Shown here piece by piece: positions 2,656 to 57,611 of a stretch of DNA of 64,000 nucleotides (positions are counted from its first letter, which is position 1; every line of letters begins with the position of its first letter). Location: contig OX597814.1 in NCBI GenBank assembly GCA_951406725.2, positions 210,490,001 to 210,554,000 on the forward strand, given 5' to 3'. The notes beneath the pieces were generated by a model. It searched no databases. It was given only the letters and a program-made list of their open reading frames with translations, and was not told the DNA's origin. The stretch is from Octopus vulgaris. Its lineage: Eukaryota. Position numbers and translations under genes: made by a program.

Positions 2656-3058
2656 TATAGATAGAGATATGTATATATATATATATATATATATAGGTAG
2701 ATAGATAGATAGATAGATATAGATATGTATATATACGTATATTAAATACCTAAATATATATACGTATATATATATATATATATAATTAATTAATAAGGGT
2801 GAGAGAATTAGATACTAATTTAATAGTATATCTATTCAACACCAAGTGGCCTAGTGCTCCGAGAAACCTGGATTATTATAATATTTTATAATATATTATA
2901 ATATTTTTACAAAATAAATATAAGAGAGTGGTCACTATATGGCTCACTCTAGCACCAGTTAATCCAAAAGGTTTCAACCACAAAAATACATGTTTCCCAT
3001 GAAAGTCAGTACGATTGTTAGCTCACACGGACAGGGCAAATAAAAAATAACAAAAATA

Positions 3059-3154
3059 CAGATTATTTTGGGACAATTGTTTCGCTATTAATGAATTAAA
3101 TGTAATTTTACTTACAAAAAAATCCACTTGTAGCTCGTCAGCCAAAACTATCTG
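3059..3154 (-). ncRNA. Type I hammerhead ribozyme motif (inverted copy)
   Basis: Reverse complement of 3792-3887. Confidence 0.8.
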
Positions 3155-3791
3155 GATGAAATCCACTCAATCACACGCCAGATTTTACCATAACGATAAA
3201 TACGCGTGTGGTTCAATTGATTACATCCGACGTTATAATTCAAATTATAATTCAAATTATAATTATAATTACATCCGACGTTATAATTCAAATTTAATTC
3301 ATTTAATTCATTTAATTCATTAATAGCGAAACAATTGTCCCAAAATAATCTGTATTTTTGTTATTTTTTATTTGCCCTGTCCGTGTGAGCTAACAATCGT
3401 ACTGACTTTCATGGGAAACATGTATTTTTGTGGTTGAAACCTTTTGGATTAACTGGTGCTAGAGTGAGCCATATAGTGACCACTCTCTTATATTTATTTT
3501 GTAAAAATATTATAATATATTATAAAATAGTATAATAATCCAGGTTTCTCGGAGCACTAGGCCACTTGGTGTTGAATAGATATACTATTAAATTAGTATC
3601 TAATTCTCTCACCCTTATTAATTAATTATAATTATGCTGCATTTATTTCTAAATGCAGTATTTGTTTTCCGTGAGAGTTTGGCGCGCTGTTAGTTGGGGC
3701 ATTTGAATTATAACGTCGGATGTAATCAATTGAACCACACGCGTATTTATCGTTATGGTAAAATCTGGCGTGTGATTGAGTGGATTTCATC

Positions 3792-3887
3792 CAGATAGTT
3801 TTGGCTGACGAGCTACAAGTGGATTTTTTTGTAAGTAAAATTACATTTAATTCATTAATAGCGAAACAATTGTCCCAAAATAATCTG
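3792..3887 (+). ncRNA. Type I hammerhead ribozyme motif
   Basis: ttttgg-CTGACGA-gcta...tagc-GAAA-caattg-TC-ccaaaa: intact core, stems I and II pair, palindromic stem III, GUC cleavage triplet, distal cagat/atctg pairing. Confidence 0.85.
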
Positions 3888-4034
3888 TATTTTTGTTATT
3901 TTTTATTTGCCCTGTCCGTGTGAGCTAACAATCGTACTGACTTTCATGGGAAACATGTATTTTTGTGGTTGAAACCTTTTGGATTAACTGGTGCTAGAGT
4001 GAGCCATATAGTGACCACTCTCTTATATTTATTT

Positions 4035-4101
<67 letters not shown>

Positions 4102-18971: not shown

Positions 18972-19392
18972 ACTCTTTTACTCTTTACTTGTTTCAGTCA
19001 TTTGACTGGAGCACCGCCATGCTGACGCATGCTGGAGCACCACCTTTAATCGAGCAACTCGACCCCAGGACTTATTCTTTGTAAGCCCAGTACTTATTCT
19101 ATCTGTTTTTCTTTGCTGAACCGCTAAGTAACGGGGACATAAACACACCAGCATCGGTTGTCATGCAATGCTAGGGGTACAAACACAGACACACAAACAC
19201 ACACACGCATATATATATATATATACATATATACGACGGGCTTCTTTCAGTTTCCGTCTACAAATCTCACAATGCTTTGATCAGCCCAATGCTATAGTAG
19301 AAGACACTTGCCCAAGGTGCCACGCAGTGGGACTGAACCCGGAACCATGTGGTTGGTAAACAAGCTACTTACCACACAGCCACGCCTGCACC
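18972..19392 (-). mobile_element. tRNA-derived SINE family A, near full length
   Basis: Reverse complement of the 35498-35930 copy, including the head (GGCGTGGCTGTGTGGTAAGTAGCTTG..GGTTCCGGGTTCAGTCCC) and a CORE-like CCTTGGGCAAGT. Confidence 0.9.
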
Positions 19393-27359: not shown

Positions 27360-27600
27360 GTCTCAAGAAAGGAATACGAAAAGCTTTCTCAGTCTAAAGA
27401 TCTGCAAATTGAAATCCCCAAAAAGTGGAAGCTTAGTACTATGATAATACCAGTAGTAATTGGTGCATCGGGAATGATAAAGAAGGGAGCTGAGAAGTGT
27501 ATTAAGCAACTCCCTCGTAATTCCAATCTCCGTTATCAACGAAAGATAACCTTGATGGGTTCATCCTATATATTACTAGGGAAAGCACTTTCCATCTAAA
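27360..27600 (+). mobile_element. R4/Dong-like restriction-like endonuclease C-terminal remnant
   Basis: KEYEKLSQSKDLQIEIPKKWKLSTMIIPVVIGASGMIKKG...QRKITLMGSSYIL. Confidence 0.75.
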
Positions 27601-27635
27601 ACACAACAAATGTAGTGATAATTTTAACATGCATA

Positions 27636-27995
27636 GATCGACACCAGTACACAACTGGTACTTAAATTATCGATCCTCAAAAGATGAAAGGCGATGTGAA
27701 TCTCGGCGGAATTTAAGTTCAGAACGTAGCGACGAGCGAAATACCTTTAAGTACTACTGTCTGCTTTCTAACGATTCGGCCAGCAAGGCCTGAAATCTTT
27801 TAGTTTTTTTGCGGGGTGGGGGCATTCGATTAGATCAACCAAATATGCAACTGGTACTTAATTTATTGACCCCCGAAAGGATGAAAGGCAAAGTCGACGT
27901 CGGCAGAATTTGAACTCAGAACATAAAGACAAGACAGACGAAATATTGCTTAGCATTTCGCCCGGCGTGCTAACGATATTGACAGCTCGCCACCT
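27636..27995 (-). mobile_element. SINE family B (Nin/Deu-domain-like), two tandem copies
   Basis: Reverse complement of 56223-56380 (GGCGAGCTG..CGTTAGCACGCCGGGCGAAATGC..GAGTTCAAATT..GCCTTTCATCCTTTCGGGGGTCAATAAA). A further degenerate copy lies at about 26710-26920. Confidence 0.85.
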
Positions 27996-28059
27996 TTACA
28001 AGTAACATAAATGCCAACACGACACTCGTGTACATACACAGAAAATAAAAAAATACACG

Positions 28060-28472
28060 CGCAGGGGTGGCTGTGTGGTAAGTAGCTTGTTTACCAGCCA
28101 CATGGTTCCGGGTTCAGTCCCACTGCGTGGCACCTTGGGTAAGTGTCTTCTACTATAGCCTCGGGCCGACCAAAGCCTTGTGAGTAGATTTGGTAGACGG
28201 AAACTGAAAGAAGCCCGTTGTATATATGTATATGTTTATATGCGTGTGTGTGTATGTGTGTCTGTGATTGTCCCCCTAGCATTGCTTGACAACCGATGGT
28301 GGTGTGTTTACGTCCCCGTAACATAGCGGTTCGGCAAAAGAGACCGATATAATAAGTACTGGGCTTACAAAAAAGAATAAGTCCCGGGGTCGAGCTGCTC
28401 GATTAAAGGCGGTGCTCCAGCATGGCCGCAGTCAAATGACTGAAACAAGTAAAAGAGTAAAAAGAGTAAAGA
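28060..28472 (+). mobile_element. tRNA-derived SINE family A, full length
   Basis: tRNA-like head, internal (TA)/(TG) tract, (AAAAGAGT)n tail. Confidence 0.92.
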
Positions 28473-35497: not shown

Positions 35498-35663
35498 AGG
35501 CGCAGGAGTGGCTGTGTGGTAAGTAGCTTGCCAACCAACCACATGGTTCCGGGTTCAGTCCCACTGCGTGGCACCTTGGGCAGGTGTATTCCGCTACAGC
35601 CCCGGGCCGACCAATGCCTTGTGAGTGGATTTGGTAGACGGAAACTGAAAGAAGCCTGTCGTA

Positions 35664-46594: not shown

Positions 46595-46965
46595 ATTTAC
46601 TCTTTTACTTGCTTCAGTCAGTTGACTGTAGCCATGCTGGAGCACCGCCTTTAGTCGAGTGAACAAATCGACCCCAGGACTCATTCTATCGGTTGTTTTG
46701 CCGCACTGCTATGTTACGGGGGCGTGAACACACCAGCGTTGGTTTTCAAACGATGTTGGGGGGACAAACACAGACGCACAATCATACACACACTCACACA
46801 CATACATACGACGGGCTTATTTCAGTTTCGTCTACCAATTACACTCACAAGGCTTTGGTCGGCCCGAGGCTGTAGTAGAAGACACTTGCCCAAGGTGCCA
46901 CGCACTGGGACTGAACCCGGACATGTGGTTCTTAAGCAAGCTACTTACTACATTGCCACACCTAT
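46595..46965 (-). mobile_element. tRNA-derived SINE family A
   Basis: Reverse complement of the full copies, with small deletions. Confidence 0.88.
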
Positions 46966-46996
46966 ACCAATATTTTATCTTTTCCCTGTTCCATTT

Positions 46997-47230
46997 AAGA
47001 GCTGATCCTTCATTTCCTGCCTCCCTTTTCGGCACCCTTTCTGTTCAATGGGCAGTAGGCCATTTATTAACTACTATCTGTGCAGTTCATCGGCCAAAGC
47101 ACCTGACATTAGTTCCCACATTAGAGGAAGGCATGCTATTGGTCTAAAGTTGGACGAAACATGTCCTTTTTCGGGGTCCTTAGCACATAACAATACCTTT
47201 CACAATTGTCATCAAGCTGGGTACTGCATT
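46997..47230 (-). mobile_element. R4/Dong-like reverse transcriptase fragment
   Basis: Minus strand reads LCAKDPEKGHVSSNFRPIACLPLMWELMSGALADEL...GLLPIEQKGCRKG..EMKDQL. Next to (TTA)n. Confidence 0.85.
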
Positions 47231-47461: not shown

Positions 47462-47827
47462 TATCATTATTATTCAGTAGTTTTATTTTTATAACGTGCT
47501 TTCACTTCACTACCGAGCGCAGCTCTGTGTGTCTTGGGTATGTGCTGTGGTTTGTTGTGATGCTCTCATGGTTACTGTATTGAGTGTGTTTTGCGTAGGA
47601 TGTGTGCGGTGCCCAGTAGTGCAATTTTCTGTATGTTATATATATTTGTAAGTCCTGGTGTTTTTGTTATGTAATTGTCTGAATATTTCTTATCGTACCT
47701 AATGATCCTACTATGATAGGAATTGTTTCTGTTTTTAGATTCCACATTCGAGTTACCTCTATTTCCAGGTCTTTGTGTTTTGAAATTTTCTCCATTTCTT
47801 TTAGAGAAAAGTTGTCATCTGCTGTCA

Positions 47828-47830
<3 letters not shown>
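47462..47830 (-). mobile_element. R4/Dong-like LINE 3' end (endonuclease C-terminus and UTR)
   Basis: KEMEKISKHKDLEIEVTRMWNLKTETIPIIVGSLGTI...IQKIALLGTAHILRKTL. TTA repeats on both sides. Confidence 0.88.
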
Positions 47831-47904: not shown

Positions 47905-48435
47905 AATGTATTGGGAGCTTTGTGGAAATCACGGTCTACAAGGAGGAAAGACGTTGTAAGTCACGGAGAATGAAAATAGCTAAATCCTGTGAGATACAAT
48001 AATTCATTGTCATAACCTGATCAGACATCGGAAACCGAACATTGTGGTGGTGGAAAAAATGAAAGAATATCCATAATAGTCGAGAAAGCATATGTCGGCG
48101 TCAACAGGATCAAAGAGAATAAAGAAAAACTGAACAACTATGACGACTTAAAGTGAGAAATACGAAATTTGCGGTCAATGGGGAAAGTAAACGTGGTACC
48201 AGTAGTTATTGCGGCACTTGGATGTATCAGCACTCAACTTCCATCATGGTTTAAAAGACTTGCACAAATGCAAAGTGTACGACACCTACAAAAACCCAAC
48301 ATTGTTAGGAACTGCAAGAATTCTTCTCAGGGTTCTTGAAGTATAACCAGTAAATGTGTGTCACTATTGTCTGCTTGCTGTGGGCAGCTGGCACTTTCCA
48401 TCTTACCCAGCAAAACAAGCTGTGAGTATGCATCA
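47905..48435 (+). mobile_element. R4/Dong-like LINE 3' end, different subfamily
   Basis: YWELCGNHGL..RHRKPNIVVVEK..EKLNNYDDLK*EIRNL..VNVVPVVIAALGCIS..LLGTARIL, followed by (AAC)n(AAT)n. Confidence 0.85.
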
Positions 48436-48604: not shown

Positions 48605-49158
48605 GCCCTGATACAGTACCAGGCAATGGCTCTCATGGCTTCTGATCTTAACTGATTGGAAGTGTTATCATGTACATTGTTTTGTCTTGGTATAAAAGAT
48701 GGGCTACAGCAAATATTCTGCTCAATACCACAGATTTGCTTGTCAGTTGTTTGACCTTAACCAGTTGAGCATGTCCCTTAGTGGCTGACGATATGTGCAT
48801 CTCTGATCACGAGCAGAAGTAGTGGGGGAGCATCATAACCATGTGTTGAGAGGGATTCTTTGGGGTTTGAATAATTCACCTCTGGAAACATGGGTAGTTC
48901 TTTCAACATCCTTAAACAACCCTTATTCAGGGACCGCTTGAGCGGGATGGGCTACTCAACCTGAAGAAAATTCTAACTGGGCCCCACCTGCAAGATCATG
49001 AGCTATTTATCTTGATATGAGATCTCCATGTCGCGCACATATGGTTGTGATGCATGTGCCTGGTGTGCCCTTATCAGACGGGTAGTCATGATGGGTATAT
49101 TGGGCTTCGTATATTTTACCCCAGTGTCACTTTGATGGCATGAACTGCTCTCTCACTC
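48601..49158 (+). mobile_element. 560-bp non-coding element bounded by (TAA)n, copy 1
   Basis: Sharp TAA boundaries. Near-identical copy at 50884-51441 and a diverged inverted fragment at 47249-47450. Confidence 0.75.
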
Positions 49159-49180
49159 AATAATAATAATAATAATAATA

Positions 49181-49231
<51 letters not shown>

Positions 49232-49835
49232 TACTAATATCAACAACGATATGTCAGTATATACTTGTGCGTGCATGTGTGTGTGTATGTGTGTGTGTGT
49301 GTGTTTAGGTGTTAGAAATTTAACTTATTTTGGCATTACTTCAAGTTCCTTAGAAGCAGAGCACGAGACAACTCAGATTTTACGGTTCAGAATAATGATA
49401 CGTATAAAGCACTTCTGTGTGAGATAAGTTTTGGGCCTTCTCGTTTCATTCTTAGATCACGTGCGGAAATTAGTTACATAACTTTAAGAGATACTCCTCG
49501 TTGCGATTCCACGTCATGCAATACTTAAGGTCGTATAGTTTGTGATTATTAGGTTACTTAGCGATGTCGTTTAGAAATGGAATTAATAATTGGCATTCCG
49601 AATAATGTGGATAGTATACTTTAGGTGTCACTCTACTTATCAATATAACAATATGTCATGGTCACATGCTAGTTCTTAATCTGGTTATTGTAAGGGTGAT
49701 GCATTTCTGCTCCATATCATCACTGGTAGCGAGTACTTGTAGTTAGAAGTGGAATAATCACTTTATGTGTTGATTATACTTAAATTGTGCATAGATATTA
49801 TCAAGTTCATAAATACTTTTTTTGTTTTCTTTCTG

Positions 49836-49896
<61 letters not shown>

Positions 49897-49971
49897 CGAC
49901 CAATAATACCATATTTGTTCCACGTCCTCGCGTTGTTGTGCTTTTTTGTGCTTTCTTGTTTGGATTAACTT

Positions 49972-50046
<75 letters not shown>

Positions 50047-50649
50047 TTATAATGTGATATATGAATTTTCCTTTAGTTGGCTATTGCAGACATGTGGAGG
50101 TATAGTTTTCTTTGAAGTTAGCAGAGCAAAGGAAACTATAAAGTCTCCCTCGTTGGTTCTCTTCATTAGTTATATATTTTTGACAGGCACCAATTCAAAA
50201 CTTTAAGAGGTTTAATTAAAGGGACAAAGGCATTTCAGGTGTGATCATCTTCCAGGTTTACTTGCATATTTGCACGTACGTGAAAATATATGCAGTGCAA
50301 ATATATGCGTGTGCATATAATACATACATTCATAAGTGTTTTTATGAGTGTGTAGATGTGCGTGCGTGCGTGTGTGTGTCTGTGTGTGTCTATGTACCAT
50401 GAGACTATAATACGCAAATTAGGCATGCAGGTCATTTTAAAGTGGATTTTAAGCAGGTCTAGTACTGTATGCCTACACGTTGTTTACTGTACTTTGCTAA
50501 AGAAAGACTATCAACTCAGAATTCCCTTTTTTATGTCTTCAAAAAAATTTGATTTAAATTATATTTCTATAGTTATTTCAAGTCTCAGAATCGAAGTTTA
50601 CAGATTTAAAATTTATATTACACAATTACAAATGTAACGCCAATAGTGT

Positions 50650-50697
<48 letters not shown>

Positions 50698-50835
50698 CAA
50701 TACTACTGCTGCTGCTGCTACTGCTGCTGCTATTGCTGCTGCTGCTGCTGCTGCCACTGCACTTCTGTTAATACTACTACTACTTATACTACTACTAATA
50801 CTACTACTACTATTAATGATGATGGTGAAGATGAT

Positions 50836-50883
<48 letters not shown>

Positions 50884-50887
<4 letters not shown>

Positions 50888-51441
50888 GCCCTGATGCAGT
50901 ACCAGGCAGTGGCTCTCATGGCTTCTGATCTTAACTGATTGGAAGTGTTATCATGTACATTGTTTTGTCTTGGTATAAAATATGGGCTACAGCAAATATT
51001 CTGCTCAATACCACAGATTTGCTTGTCAGTTGTTTGACCTTAACCAGTTGAGCATGTCCCTTAGTGGCTGACGATATGTGCATCTCTGATCACGAGCAGA
51101 AGTAGTGGGGGAGCATCATAACCATGTGTTGAGAGGGATTCTTTGGGGTTTGAATAATTCACCTCTGGAAACATGGGTGGTTCTTTCAACATCCTTAAAC
51201 AACCCTTATTCAGGGACCGCTTGAGCGGGATGGGCTACTCAACCTGAAGAAAATTCTAACTGGGCCCCACCTGCAAGGTCATGAGCTATTTATCTTGATA
51301 TGAGATCACCATGTCGCGCACATATGGTTGTGATGCATGTGCCTGGTGTGCCCTTATCAGATGGGTAGTCATGATGGGTATATTGGGCTTCGTATATTTT
51401 ACCCCAGTGTCACTTTGATGGCATGAAATGCTCTCTCACTC
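50884..51441 (+). mobile_element. 560-bp non-coding element bounded by (TAA)n, copy 2
   Basis: Near identical to 48601-49158. Confidence 0.75.
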
Positions 51442-51494
<53 letters not shown>

Positions 51495-52006
51495 TAATAA
51501 TATCAACAACGATATGTCTGTATATACTTGTGCGTGCATGTGTGTGTGTATGTGTGTGTGTGTGTGTTTAGGTGTTAGAAATTTAACTTATTTTGGCATT
51601 ACTTCAAGTTCCTTAGAAGCAGAGCACGAGACAACTCAGATTTTACGGTTCAGAATAATGATACGTATAAAGCACTTCTGTGTGAGATAAGTTTTGGGCC
51701 TTCTCGTTTCATTCTTAGATCACGTGCGGAAATTAGTTACATAACTTTAAGAGATACTCCTCTTTGCGATTCCACGTCATGCAATACTTAAGGTCGTATA
51801 GTTTGTGATTATTAGGTTACAATATGTCATGGTCACATGCTAGTCCTTAATCTGGTTATTGTAAGGGTGATGCATTTCTGCTCCATATCATCACTGGTAG
51901 TGAGTACTTGTAGTTAGAAGTGGAATAATCACTTTATGTGTTGATTATACTTAAATTGTGCATAGATATTATCAAGTTCATAAATACTTTTTTTGTTTTC
52001 TTTCTG

Positions 52007-52051
<45 letters not shown>

Positions 52052-52126
52052 CGTCCAATAATACCATATTTGTTCCACGTCCTCGCGTTGTTGTGCTTTT
52101 TTGTGCTTTCTTGTTTGGATTAACTT

Positions 52127-52200
<74 letters not shown>

Positions 52201-52794
52201 CTTATAATATGATATATGAATTTTCCTTTAGTTGGCTATTGCAGACATGTGGAGGTATAGTTTTCTTTGAAGTTAGCAGAGCAAAGGAAAATATAAAGTC
52301 TCCCTCGTTGGTTCTCTTCATTAGTTATATATTTTTGACAGGCACCAATTCAAAACTTTAAGAGGTTTAATTAAAGGGACAAAGGCATTTCAGGTGTGAT
52401 CATCTTCCAGGTTTACTTGCATATTTTCACCAACGTGAAAATATATGCAGTGCAAATATATGCTTGCGCATATAATACATAAATTCATAAGTGTTTTTAT
52501 GAGTGTGTAGATGTGCGTGCGTGCGTGTGTGTGTGTGTGTGTGTGTCTATGTACCATGAGACTATAATACGCAAATTAGGCATGCAGGTCATTTTAAAGT
52601 GGATTTTAAGCAGGTCTAGTACTGTATGCCTACACGTTGTTTACAGTACTTTGCTAAAGAAAGACTATCAACTCAGAATTCCCTTTTTTATGTCTTCAAA
52701 AAATTTGATTTAAATTATATTTCTATAGTTATTTCAAGTCTCAGAATCGAAGTTTACAGATTTAAAATTTATATTACACAATTACAAATAGTGT

Positions 52795-52832
<38 letters not shown>

Positions 52833-52980
52833 ATACTACTACCAATACTACTGCTGCTGCTGCTACTGCTGCTGCTATTGCTGCTGCTGCTGCTGCCACT
52901 GCACTTCTGTTAATATTACTACTTATTATACTACTACTAATACTACTACTACTACTATTAATGATGATGGTGAAGATGAT

Positions 52981-54962
<1,982 letters not shown>

Positions 54963-56101
54963 TTTCATTTCGTTAGTTCTATATCTTGCTGTGACTATAG
55001 CAGCTTTTAATAAAATGTTTTCATTATTAACTGCATAGAGGTCTATATGTAATCTAGCTAACTCCACGCAGTCTTGTACCTATAATTGACCATAATAATA
55101 ATAATAATAATGTCCAAGTAGCTTTAATACTGCTACTCCTGCCCTTGGGTGGAGTCGTTCATTCATATTGAATTCCTTCCTAGACCTTCTTTTGTCCAAT
55201 CAACAAAAGCTGCTGAGTATGTAAATAATGATACTGCCCAAGTATTTACAGCCTTCAGTAGATTCGGACAATTTAGCTTTGACTTCATTAGCTTCCTCAC
55301 TTTTCTGACGTACACCTCCTCTATTTTCGTTTTCATTCTGTTGTTAGCACTCTGCCATATTCTAATACTACTAGATACTTATAACTCTCTCCACCTTTCA
55401 ATGATATAAACGTCTGGCCGTCTGGTAACCGGATGCCTTCACTGTTGACTAACTGCCCTCTTCTAATGACTAATATTGCACACTTATTTATGCCAAATTC
55501 CATGCCAATATATTTGCTGGAGAGTCCTCCAGTCTGTATTAAAGAATCTGTCTCTTTTTTCATTTTTACTTAAGTGCTTCAGATCATCCATGTAGAGCAA
55601 ATGGTTATTTTTTCCATTGGAACCTCTGAACTGCTACCCTGCCTTTGATTCCCTTAATACTAAACTGAAGGGGATCAAACAGAAGACAAAGATTAAAGAG
55701 GATATTATCTTTCCCTAAGAGAGTAAAGATCTACTTCCCATTTCTTCATGCTGAACCTAACTAATTCTCTTATGTTTTCTGCTATACTGAATAAACACAA
55801 ACATTCACTTATCGATGAGTGTGGGAGCATGTCATATAATCTATACATGTTATTGTTAGATATTTCTTTCTAGCTTTTACTTCATTTATAACTGTTTTGT
55901 CTATATATAATAGATCAAGTATTCTTCTAGCCAACTTCTTGCAACCTTTCTGGTAGTAAATTCAGGTTGTCAAGGTGTTCATAAATGCTTTCTGAAAGCA
56001 TTCCTGCTAATATCTTCCACATTAATGCTAAGTAAGTGATTGGTCTATACCTGCTCAGACACGTTAGCGCGCTGGGCGGAATGCTTAACGGTATTTCGTC
56101 T

Positions 56102-56221
56102 GCTGACGGCCATATCACGTTGAAAGCACCGGTTCTCGTCCGATCACCGAAGTTAAGCAACATCGAGCCTAGTTAGTACTTAGATGGGTGACCGCTTGGG
56201 AAACCTAGGTGCTGTAAGCAT
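56102..56221 (+). rRNA. Full-length (120 nt) 5S rRNA copy, probably a retropseudogene
   Basis: GCTGACGGCCATATCACGTTGAAAGCACCGGTTCTCGTCCGATCACCGAAGTTAAGCAAC...AGTTAGTACTTAGATGGGTGACCGCTTGGGAAACCTAGGTGCTGTAAGCAT. The ends pair as helix I with one mismatch. No oligo-T terminator; solitary copy. Confidence 0.95.
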
Positions 56222-56222
56222 A

Positions 56223-56638
56223 AGGCGGCGAGCTGGCAGAAACGTTAGCACACTGGGCAAAATGCGTAGCCGTATTTTGTCTGCCATTACTTTCTAAGTT
56301 CAAATTCTGCCGAGGTCGACTTTGCCTTTCATCCTTTCAGGGTCGATAAATTAACTACCAGTTACACACTGGGGTCGATGTAATCGACTTAATCCGTTTC
56401 TCTGTCCTTGTTTGTCCTCTCTGTGTTTATCCACTTGTGGGTAGTAAAGAAATAGGTATTTCGTCTGTCGTTACGTTCTGAGTTCAAATTCCGCCGAGGT
56501 CGACTTTGCCTTTCATCTTTTCGGGGTCGATAAATAAAAGTACCAGTTTCGCACTGGGATCGATGTAATTGACTTAATCCGTTTGTCTGTCCTTGTTTGC
56601 CCTCTCTATGTTTAGTCCCTTGTGGGCAATAAAGAAAT
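56223..56638 (+). mobile_element. SINE family B: full copy plus tandem 5'-truncated copy
   Basis: GGCGGCGAGCTGGCAGAAACGTTAGCAC head; the body from about 56271 to 56452 is repeated at about 56455-56638. Confidence 0.9.
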
Positions 56639-57611
56639 ATATATTACTTTTGCTCTTATCCATCGTAATGCGTATTGTTCTCCCTCTAATCCTCCAATCT
56701 CGTATTATTCCTCCATTAGGACAAGCCTTAAGTTGTTCCGTCAACTCCCATGTACACTACTGAATTTCTTTACCCTGTACCCTTGAACTAAATCTGGTAT
56801 TGGGCCCTCCAGTTCGGCATTTTTGCTAATACCTTACTCATTAATACACCAGTTAATCTTAGATCTGGCTGCTTTTCACTCACTACTTATTACCTCACTT
56901 TCTTTAACCATACTACATCCTCATTATGATTGACTGGTTTGTCCGCAATATTACTCCAGAACTTTCTAGGTTCCTCTGCCTTAGGTTTCTCAAATTCAGT
57001 ACTTTATTCTCCACTATTTATTTGGTTAAAACATCCCTTCTGGTCTTTCTCAAATAATCTACTCTGTCGATACTGATCTATTCTTTTCCGGAGAGCTTGT
57101 CTGGTACTGTTATGGTACGCTGTTTAAACCTTCTCTTATTGTCCCAAATCCTTTCCTTTAAATCATCTTTCCTCGAGGCAAGATTTGCATCTTGAGTTTC
57201 CTAACTTGTTTGTTTTCCAGACTTGTATTCAACTCAGATCTTCACTTTCTTTAGTAGTCTCCTTTTCCACATTTTATCCTTTGTAACCTCTCCCTGTGAG
57301 ATATCTAATCTCCTGGTAACTACTGCCCCTCCTGCATAGATCAATAAGCTAGTCTTCTTTATTTTTAGCATCTATCCTACTGATAACAGAATCTACTTTG
57401 CTATTCATTTCTTGTAACTTCCTTCTGTTGGTACATTTTAATGCTGACAGTATATTTCTTACTTCTTTACTCATTACTTCCTGCAACTCATATAAAATCT
57501 TGTGATCTTCCTCACTTAAATCACTTAAGACGTTGGTGCCAGATGTCCTTCCTTATTGGTAATTCCATTATAATTTTTTCCCTTAGGTTCATCTTCCGTT
57601 TGAGCTGTTTC

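Follow-up and report, generated by a model that had tools for sequence, protein, structure and literature searches.

Small RNAs fused to retroposons form a recognized kind of chimeric retrogene, represented by U6-L1, U6atac-Alu and U6-Mon-1 and described with target duplications (available text of PMC4476161), and a switch from a SINE to 5S rRNA has been proposed as the origin of 5S-headed composite SINEs (available text of PMC4824008, PMC4758252, PMC4494074 and PMC3272025). In the stretch of Octopus vulgaris DNA analyzed here (64 kb; hereafter the window), a complete 5S rRNA copy is joined to a SINE inside a dead LINE, and the locus raises the question of how, and in how many events, this composite arose, and whether it belongs to a family or stands alone. 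If it is a one-off, the small-RNA/SINE chimera route of mammals and a fungus also operates in this invertebrate genome, and the locus illustrates cleanly, in a single case, the initial step by which 5S-headed SINEs have been proposed to arise. With the possible readings taken together, a one-off retro-accident is very probable; the chimera is of a kind already known, and no function is evident. The parts of the locus, in window coordinates, are as follows.

54960..56055, minus strand: downstream part (RT region) of a dead non-LTR retrotransposon ORF (tblastn with protein P0001)
56056..56102, plus strand: 5' part of an outer SINE that lacks about 14 nt of the head and extends to the base of the head hairpin (similarity to the inner head; fold)
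56090..56102, plus strand: left copy of an exact 13-nt repeat, a candidate target-site duplication (sequence comparison)
56102..56221, plus strand: complete 5S rRNA copy (Rfam RF00001, 110 bits, model 1-120)
56222..56454, plus strand: inner SINE, full-length (SINE comparison; 5' start of the family from public-run contigs)
56455..56467, plus strand: right copy of the exact 13-nt repeat (sequence comparison)
56455..56639, plus strand: 3' part of the outer SINE (continues the head at 56056-56102)
56640..57600, minus strand: upstream part of the dead non-LTR retrotransposon ORF (P0001 alignment; outer limit set by the flanking microsatellite)

The order and coordinates of a head fragment, a 5S rRNA, a full SINE and a partial SINE copy had been proposed in a sequence-only reading of this DNA, and they are upheld by the Rfam match and by SINE alignments in which the head fragment is 81% identical to the inner SINE head over 48 nt (56056-56103) and the 3' unit (56455-56639) is 87.5% identical to the full inner SINE over 184 nt. 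The 5S rRNA is joined directly to the SINE start at 56222, with the small RNA 5' of the retroposon, and the whole insert of 584 bp splits a LINE that encodes a reverse transcriptase (RT). The LINE was traced with an RT protein found by homology (P0001; E = 4e-12), which carries the Pfam domain RVT_1 (E = 4.6e-23). In tblastn, residues 270-417 of P0001 align to 57084-56640 and residues 419-796 to 56055-54996, with residues 383-417 at 56744-56640 and 419-539 at 56055-55711 on the two sides of the insert; the ORF is collinear across it with one codon unaccounted for (residue 417 at 56640, residue 419 at 56055), and the host RT does rejoin almost cleanly, as had been stated.

The RT region of the LINE contains many stops and frameshifts and is 29-40% identical to P0001; a Pfam search of the window's own LINE fragments gave no match. 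The protein layout and the AAT-type microsatellite flanks point to a Dong/R4-like non-LTR retrotransposon as the host: in P0001, by our reading, a Cys/His and nuclease-like region follows the RT at the C-terminus, and the host sits between AAT-type microsatellites, the reported target of Dong (available text of PMC3812793). It differs from Dong/R4 in that the element here is dead and 3'-truncated. Further retrotransposon fragments related to the RT and C-terminal regions of P0001 lie at 27360-27575, 46996-47199, 47593-47828 and 47915-48343.

The 5S copy matches the whole Rfam model at 56102-56220 with 110 bits, where 38 is the gathering score, and it is the sole Rfam match at gathering level in the 64-kb window; the earlier description of it as complete is borne out. 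Both of its ends are natural RNA ends, and it lies in sense to the SINE. The overlap reported between head and 5S is present, its size being 1 nt when judged against the outer SINE's own continuation and 2 nt against the inner copy. Two helix-breaking changes, at positions 4 and 61, underlie the two non-standard pairs flagged by Rfam: G4.A116 in helix I, a mismatch that had been noticed already, and C17.A61, which is added here. The TAGATGGG variant places A81 opposite U95 in helix IV, which we take to be a standard pair in the eukaryotic structure; given that assumed pairing, TAGATGGG need not be damage, and probably it is not. At window position 56140 the copy has C, T being present in most of the contig depth (64-92%) of all three public contig runs; more than one 5S variant therefore exists in these genomes.

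Transcription from the 5S into the SINE had also been envisaged, on the ground that an oligo-T terminator is lacking. None lies directly 3' of the 5S, but TTTT occurs at 56275-56278, within the inner SINE and 54 nt beyond the 5S; Pol III read-through would likely end there, which limits its proposed passage into the SINE.

The SINE is a high-copy, interspersed element, as seen both in the window, where it has three loci (the 5S-SINE structure has one copy), and in contigs from three public runs, of which 499,878 (X1), 220,338 (X4) and 92,232 (X6) aligned to the stretch with their depth concentrated over the SINE parts. Depth sums are not taken as copy numbers. None of the runs listed as containing the stretch is recorded as RNA, and X6 is RNA by guess only, so they give no evidence on expression; a raw-read run (X21), in which only 10 of 12.9 million reads aligned, was out of line with the contig runs and was excluded. 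Tandem joints into 56222 in the public-run contigs mark the 5' start of the family. The inner SINE has an A-box-like motif at 56234 and a B-box-like motif at 56298, the box patterns being those we presume for such promoters; neither ARAGORN nor Rfam matched a tRNA in the SINE. An abundant SINE with box A/B-like motifs recalls, by description rather than by comparison of consensus sequences, the octopus tRNA-derived SINEs OR1 and OR2, which are CORE-SINEs (available text of PMC4824008 and PMC4758252).

The unit downstream of the inner SINE, previously called a tandem partial copy, is instead the 3' half of an outer SINE. When the block 56103-56467 is skipped, it rejoins the head fragment as a continuous SINE that is identical to the inner copy at 188 of 218 positions, with a single 1-nt gap, and it opens with the hairpin arm of the outer head, not with the inner copy's variant of that arm. 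Public contigs agree that the uninterrupted SINE is the normal form of the family: 56103 is joined to 56471 in 6 (X1), 1 (X4) and 1 (X6) contigs and to 56475 in 9, 2 and 3, respectively, and in 1576, 1185 and 449 contigs the loose end ahead of 56455 has SINE-head sequence. The 5S and the full SINE are bracketed by an exact 13-nt repeat (56090-56102 and 56455-56467); the two junction regions share no other exact repeat of at least 8 nt. Because the left copy ends on a base that also serves as 5S position 1, the length of the duplication is 12 or 13 bp. The sequence-only reading was right that no target duplication surrounds the whole insert (none of at least 4 nt was found) but missed this one. 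Around the 5S alone, no flanking duplication of at least 3 nt was found. Anatomy, repeat and the collinearity of the SINE halves and of the LINE are all seen directly, and because the halves are continuous, the repeat is present and no duplication brackets the 5S by itself, the simplest anatomy is an outer SINE interrupted by 5S plus SINE. The single composite insertion proposed before is not the simplest reading of two halves of one SINE that overlap by 13 nt; it survives as a rival explanation, taken up below.

About an even chance is accordingly given by this analysis to a 5S-SINE chimeric retrocopy, with a target duplication of 12-13 bp, having been inserted into an older SINE, and a retro-chimera of 5S rRNA and SINE, as had been suggested, is supported. 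We infer an order of events and an enzyme as follows. A Dong/R4-like LINE would have decayed, and an ordinary SINE, a little shortened at its 5' end, would have entered it in antisense; 0-3 nt would have been lost and no duplication made. A nick by a LINE reverse transcriptase at the head hairpin of the resident SINE would have followed; the enzyme would have copied a SINE RNA over its whole length, 3' to 5', continued on a 5S rRNA, entered at that RNA's 3' end (through a template jump or owing to prior RNA ligation), and copied the full 5S, leaving the target duplication of 12-13 bp. A variant, in which a dimer-type SINE RNA was primed by homology on the resident SINE, would be indistinguishable here. 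The chimera so formed is likely dead and likely single-copy.

Small-RNA/SINE chimeras with target duplications provide a precedent (available text of PMC4476161). As in the chimeric retrogenes described there, a complete Pol III RNA lies 5' of, and in sense to, the 3' part of a retroposon, and a short direct repeat brackets the pair; the difference is that the partner here is a full-length invertebrate SINE, sited in a copy of the same SINE. Human 5S-L1 chimeras are described as mostly truncated and antisense (available text of bioRxiv 10.1101/2025.02.02.635956), whereas the 5S of this locus is complete and in sense, and in this it resembles the U6 chimeras.

The proposed order of insertion is not confirmed by dating, because the inner SINE shows no lower divergence than the outer one: polarised changes number 14 inner-derived and 8 outer-derived, with 8 ambiguous (p = 0.29). 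The inner copy has an apparent surplus of lost CpG sites (11 vs 16 CpG), which was set aside because compensated change in the hairpin accounts for part of it. The overlap of the two halves is, taken alone, modest evidence, since independent random fragments overlap by 5-25 nt in 8.5% of trials.

The repeat itself has a second possible source. The SINE head contains a 12-bp hairpin (56074-56101, 56255-56282 and about 27934-27964 on the minus strand), which all three heads form when folded, at -11.8 to -13.7 kcal/mol (-13.7 in the outer head), and which the inner copy preserves through two double changes. The 13-nt repeat coincides with the 3' arm of this hairpin, and partial units begin at the same arm at 27745 (minus strand), 42739 (minus strand) and 56455; at both other SINE loci in the window (the second unit at 27.6 kb, and 42.7 kb), a unit starts at the arm with no upstream head. 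These starts suggest that the arm is an RT pause site, a point of RNA cleavage or a hot spot of self-insertion. Of the contig pieces, 24 were shown and 446,224 further pieces lie outside that listing, so that the counts hold among the pieces listed; 5 of these 24 bridge the tail/restart junction at 56454/56455 with at least 31 letters on each side and 12-17 differences, and other copies therefore carry this junction (two more listed pieces fell below the 31-letter rule and were left out of the count). In 16 contigs of X1, 16 of X4 and 0 of X6, an opposite-strand joint from 56221 to 56471 attaches the reversed SINE 5' end to the SINE body just beyond the hairpin, which looks like twin-priming 5' inversion or antisense SINE-in-SINE insertion, and tail-to-head joints in the public-run contigs also cluster at the same SINE points. 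Since the junction recurs and other units start at the arm, the repeat may be a by-product of breakpoints defined by the hairpin. Whatever the history of this locus, the broader lead is the conserved hairpin of the SINE head: truncations, dimers and this insertion all fall at its 3' arm.

Two further features of the SINE were observed. At 56446-56462, SINE tail and restart together form a perfect inverted repeat with 6-bp arms and a 2-nt loop, and the 3' end of the SINE RNA could therefore pair with the hairpin arm. At 27634-27996 (minus strand), there is a SINE whose 3' tail differs, and behind it a partial second unit that starts from the same hairpin arm; this locus may be a SINE dimer of independent origin. 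A 7-nt repeat around the 27.6-kb SINE unit was rejected as a duplication, for it overlaps the SINE's own start.

Breakpoints of this sort would allow a single retrotransposition with several template jumps to have placed all 584 bp in the LINE. The RT would have copied the SINE 3' unit as far as the hairpin arm, then a full SINE (or a dimer-type SINE RNA), then 5S rRNA, and lastly a head fragment ending at the hairpin base, and the 13-nt repeat would be the hairpin 3' arm copied twice. Such an event is credible because the repeat lies on the arm of a conserved hairpin, the tail/restart junction recurs, random fragments overlap as often as they do and the inner SINE is not the younger; the opposite-strand and tail-to-head joints likewise speak for frequent rearrangement at these points. 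Published counterparts are the tripartite chimeras WEIRD-MgSINE-MGL and mouse B2-U6-L1, for which template switching at hairpins is reported and which share with this locus the order of SINE piece, small RNA and retroposon as well as breakpoints at RNA hairpins (available text of PMC2104539). Those cases were recognised by 14-16 bp repeats that bracket the whole unit (available text of PMC2104539), whereas here the whole insert has no target duplication and the repeat brackets only 5S plus SINE. Two or three jumps are required, moreover, the last of them landing within 13 nt of the first stop, and head fragment and 3' unit fit as one SINE copy. The multi-jump origin is treated as a real rival, though a less likely one than the nested insertion.

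A different question is whether 5S plus SINE is the daughter of a 5S-headed composite SINE family (SINE3-like, or like AmnSINE1, one such SINE), with the 5S as internal promoter and mobilised through the SINE tail. The 5S is complete, directly fused and in sense, with no terminator at the junction; the whole Rfam 5S model is matched. For SINEBase, identity of 60% or more to 5S rRNA across no fewer than 60 nt defines a 5S head, and 100 or more interspersed copies of one structure define a family (available text of PMC3531059). An automated annotation of Octopus vulgaris includes a SINE "5S" class of 9.8 Mb, represented by 4 consensus sequences (supplement table 1 of PMC13282606, in its available text), and this is only a lead. 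The 7 recent insertions of that class cover 42 kb, an average too long for a SINE. Beyond that class, no description of a cephalopod 5S-SINE chimera or an octopus SINE3 family was found in the available text of the literature covered, Repbase/Dfam and most subscription papers being outside its scope; bioRxiv 10.1101/2024.12.09.627507 contained nothing that bears on the matter (available text). Among published 5S-headed composite SINEs, a subgroup of Deu-SINEs has 5S fused to a tRNA head (available text of PMC4758252 and PMC4824008), and HaSE3 is a further example (available text of PMC3272025); the locus resembles them in that 5S is joined 5' of a SINE, but differs in that its SINE head is intact rather than trimmed, it has an internal TTTT and a second copy was not found in the window or among the listed contig pieces.

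The contigs lean against an old family of this kind. The 5S/SINE junction is bridged by none of the 24 listed pieces, of which the longest from X1 is 144 nt; the test is weak, since these are 24 of about 446,000 and a young family would yield short contigs. Neither 5S junction, that of the locus itself included, is spanned by any of the 24. Full-length, diverged 5S copies (12-18 differences) are present in 8 of the listed pieces, and all 8 end at 56221/56222 and continue for 27-461 letters, without any alignment to the SINE. The consensus of the loose ends 3' of the 5S in 29 X6 contigs is rich in T (agreement 0.5), which is what ordinary 5S genes show. The same evidence leans against the SINE being a normal 5S spacer, a comparison that the sequence-only reading had recommended, and transcription of this copy would probably terminate at the TTTT beginning at 56275. 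Searches with the junction pattern (0 matches in metagenome contigs) and the SINE core pattern (0 in metagenome, viral and prokaryote genome collections) are uninformative, since those collections are not expected to contain this animal. The 5S-headed family put forward earlier is thus unsupported among the pieces listed, and descent from one is considered improbable. A similarly small chance is left to an undescribed, small cephalopod lineage of 5S-headed SINEs at the birth stage of a SINE3-type family, with 5S joined to a tRNA-type head that is as yet intact; its parent SINE would target, or break at, its own head hairpin, which would also explain the recurrent dimers.

Very unlikely is a sequential origin, in which the 13-nt duplication was made when the inner SINE inserted into the outer one, and a 5S retrocopy arrived later exactly at the inner SINE's 5' junction: a U6atac/Alu case without duplication has been read so (available text of PMC4476161), but one exact position must be struck, and by a 5S with no duplication of at least 3 nt to its name. 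An orphan piece of a 5S rDNA array with a SINE in its spacer, or an assembly chimera, would suit junctions that no listed piece spans but is scarcely tenable against boundaries that are exact RNA ends, a host ORF collinear across the insert, other 5S copies that run into non-SINE or T-rich sequence, and runs from two samples, one of which may be the source, that contain 57-66% of the sampled words from 55150-57560.

Other repeats in the window were noted in passing. A perfect 338-nt inverted repeat with an internal copy (3305-3487) occupies 2908-4038; it represents a foldback element of very recent origin or else an artefact of assembly. At 48605-52900, blocks of 170-550 nt are duplicated about 2.2 kb apart at 97-99.6% identity, with AAT microsatellites between them; the region was either duplicated in tandem recently or doubled as a haplotype/assembly duplication. 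Another short interspersed repeat family is represented at 19234-19389, 28059-28218, 35500-35661 and 46809-46963, its copies being 85-92% identical.
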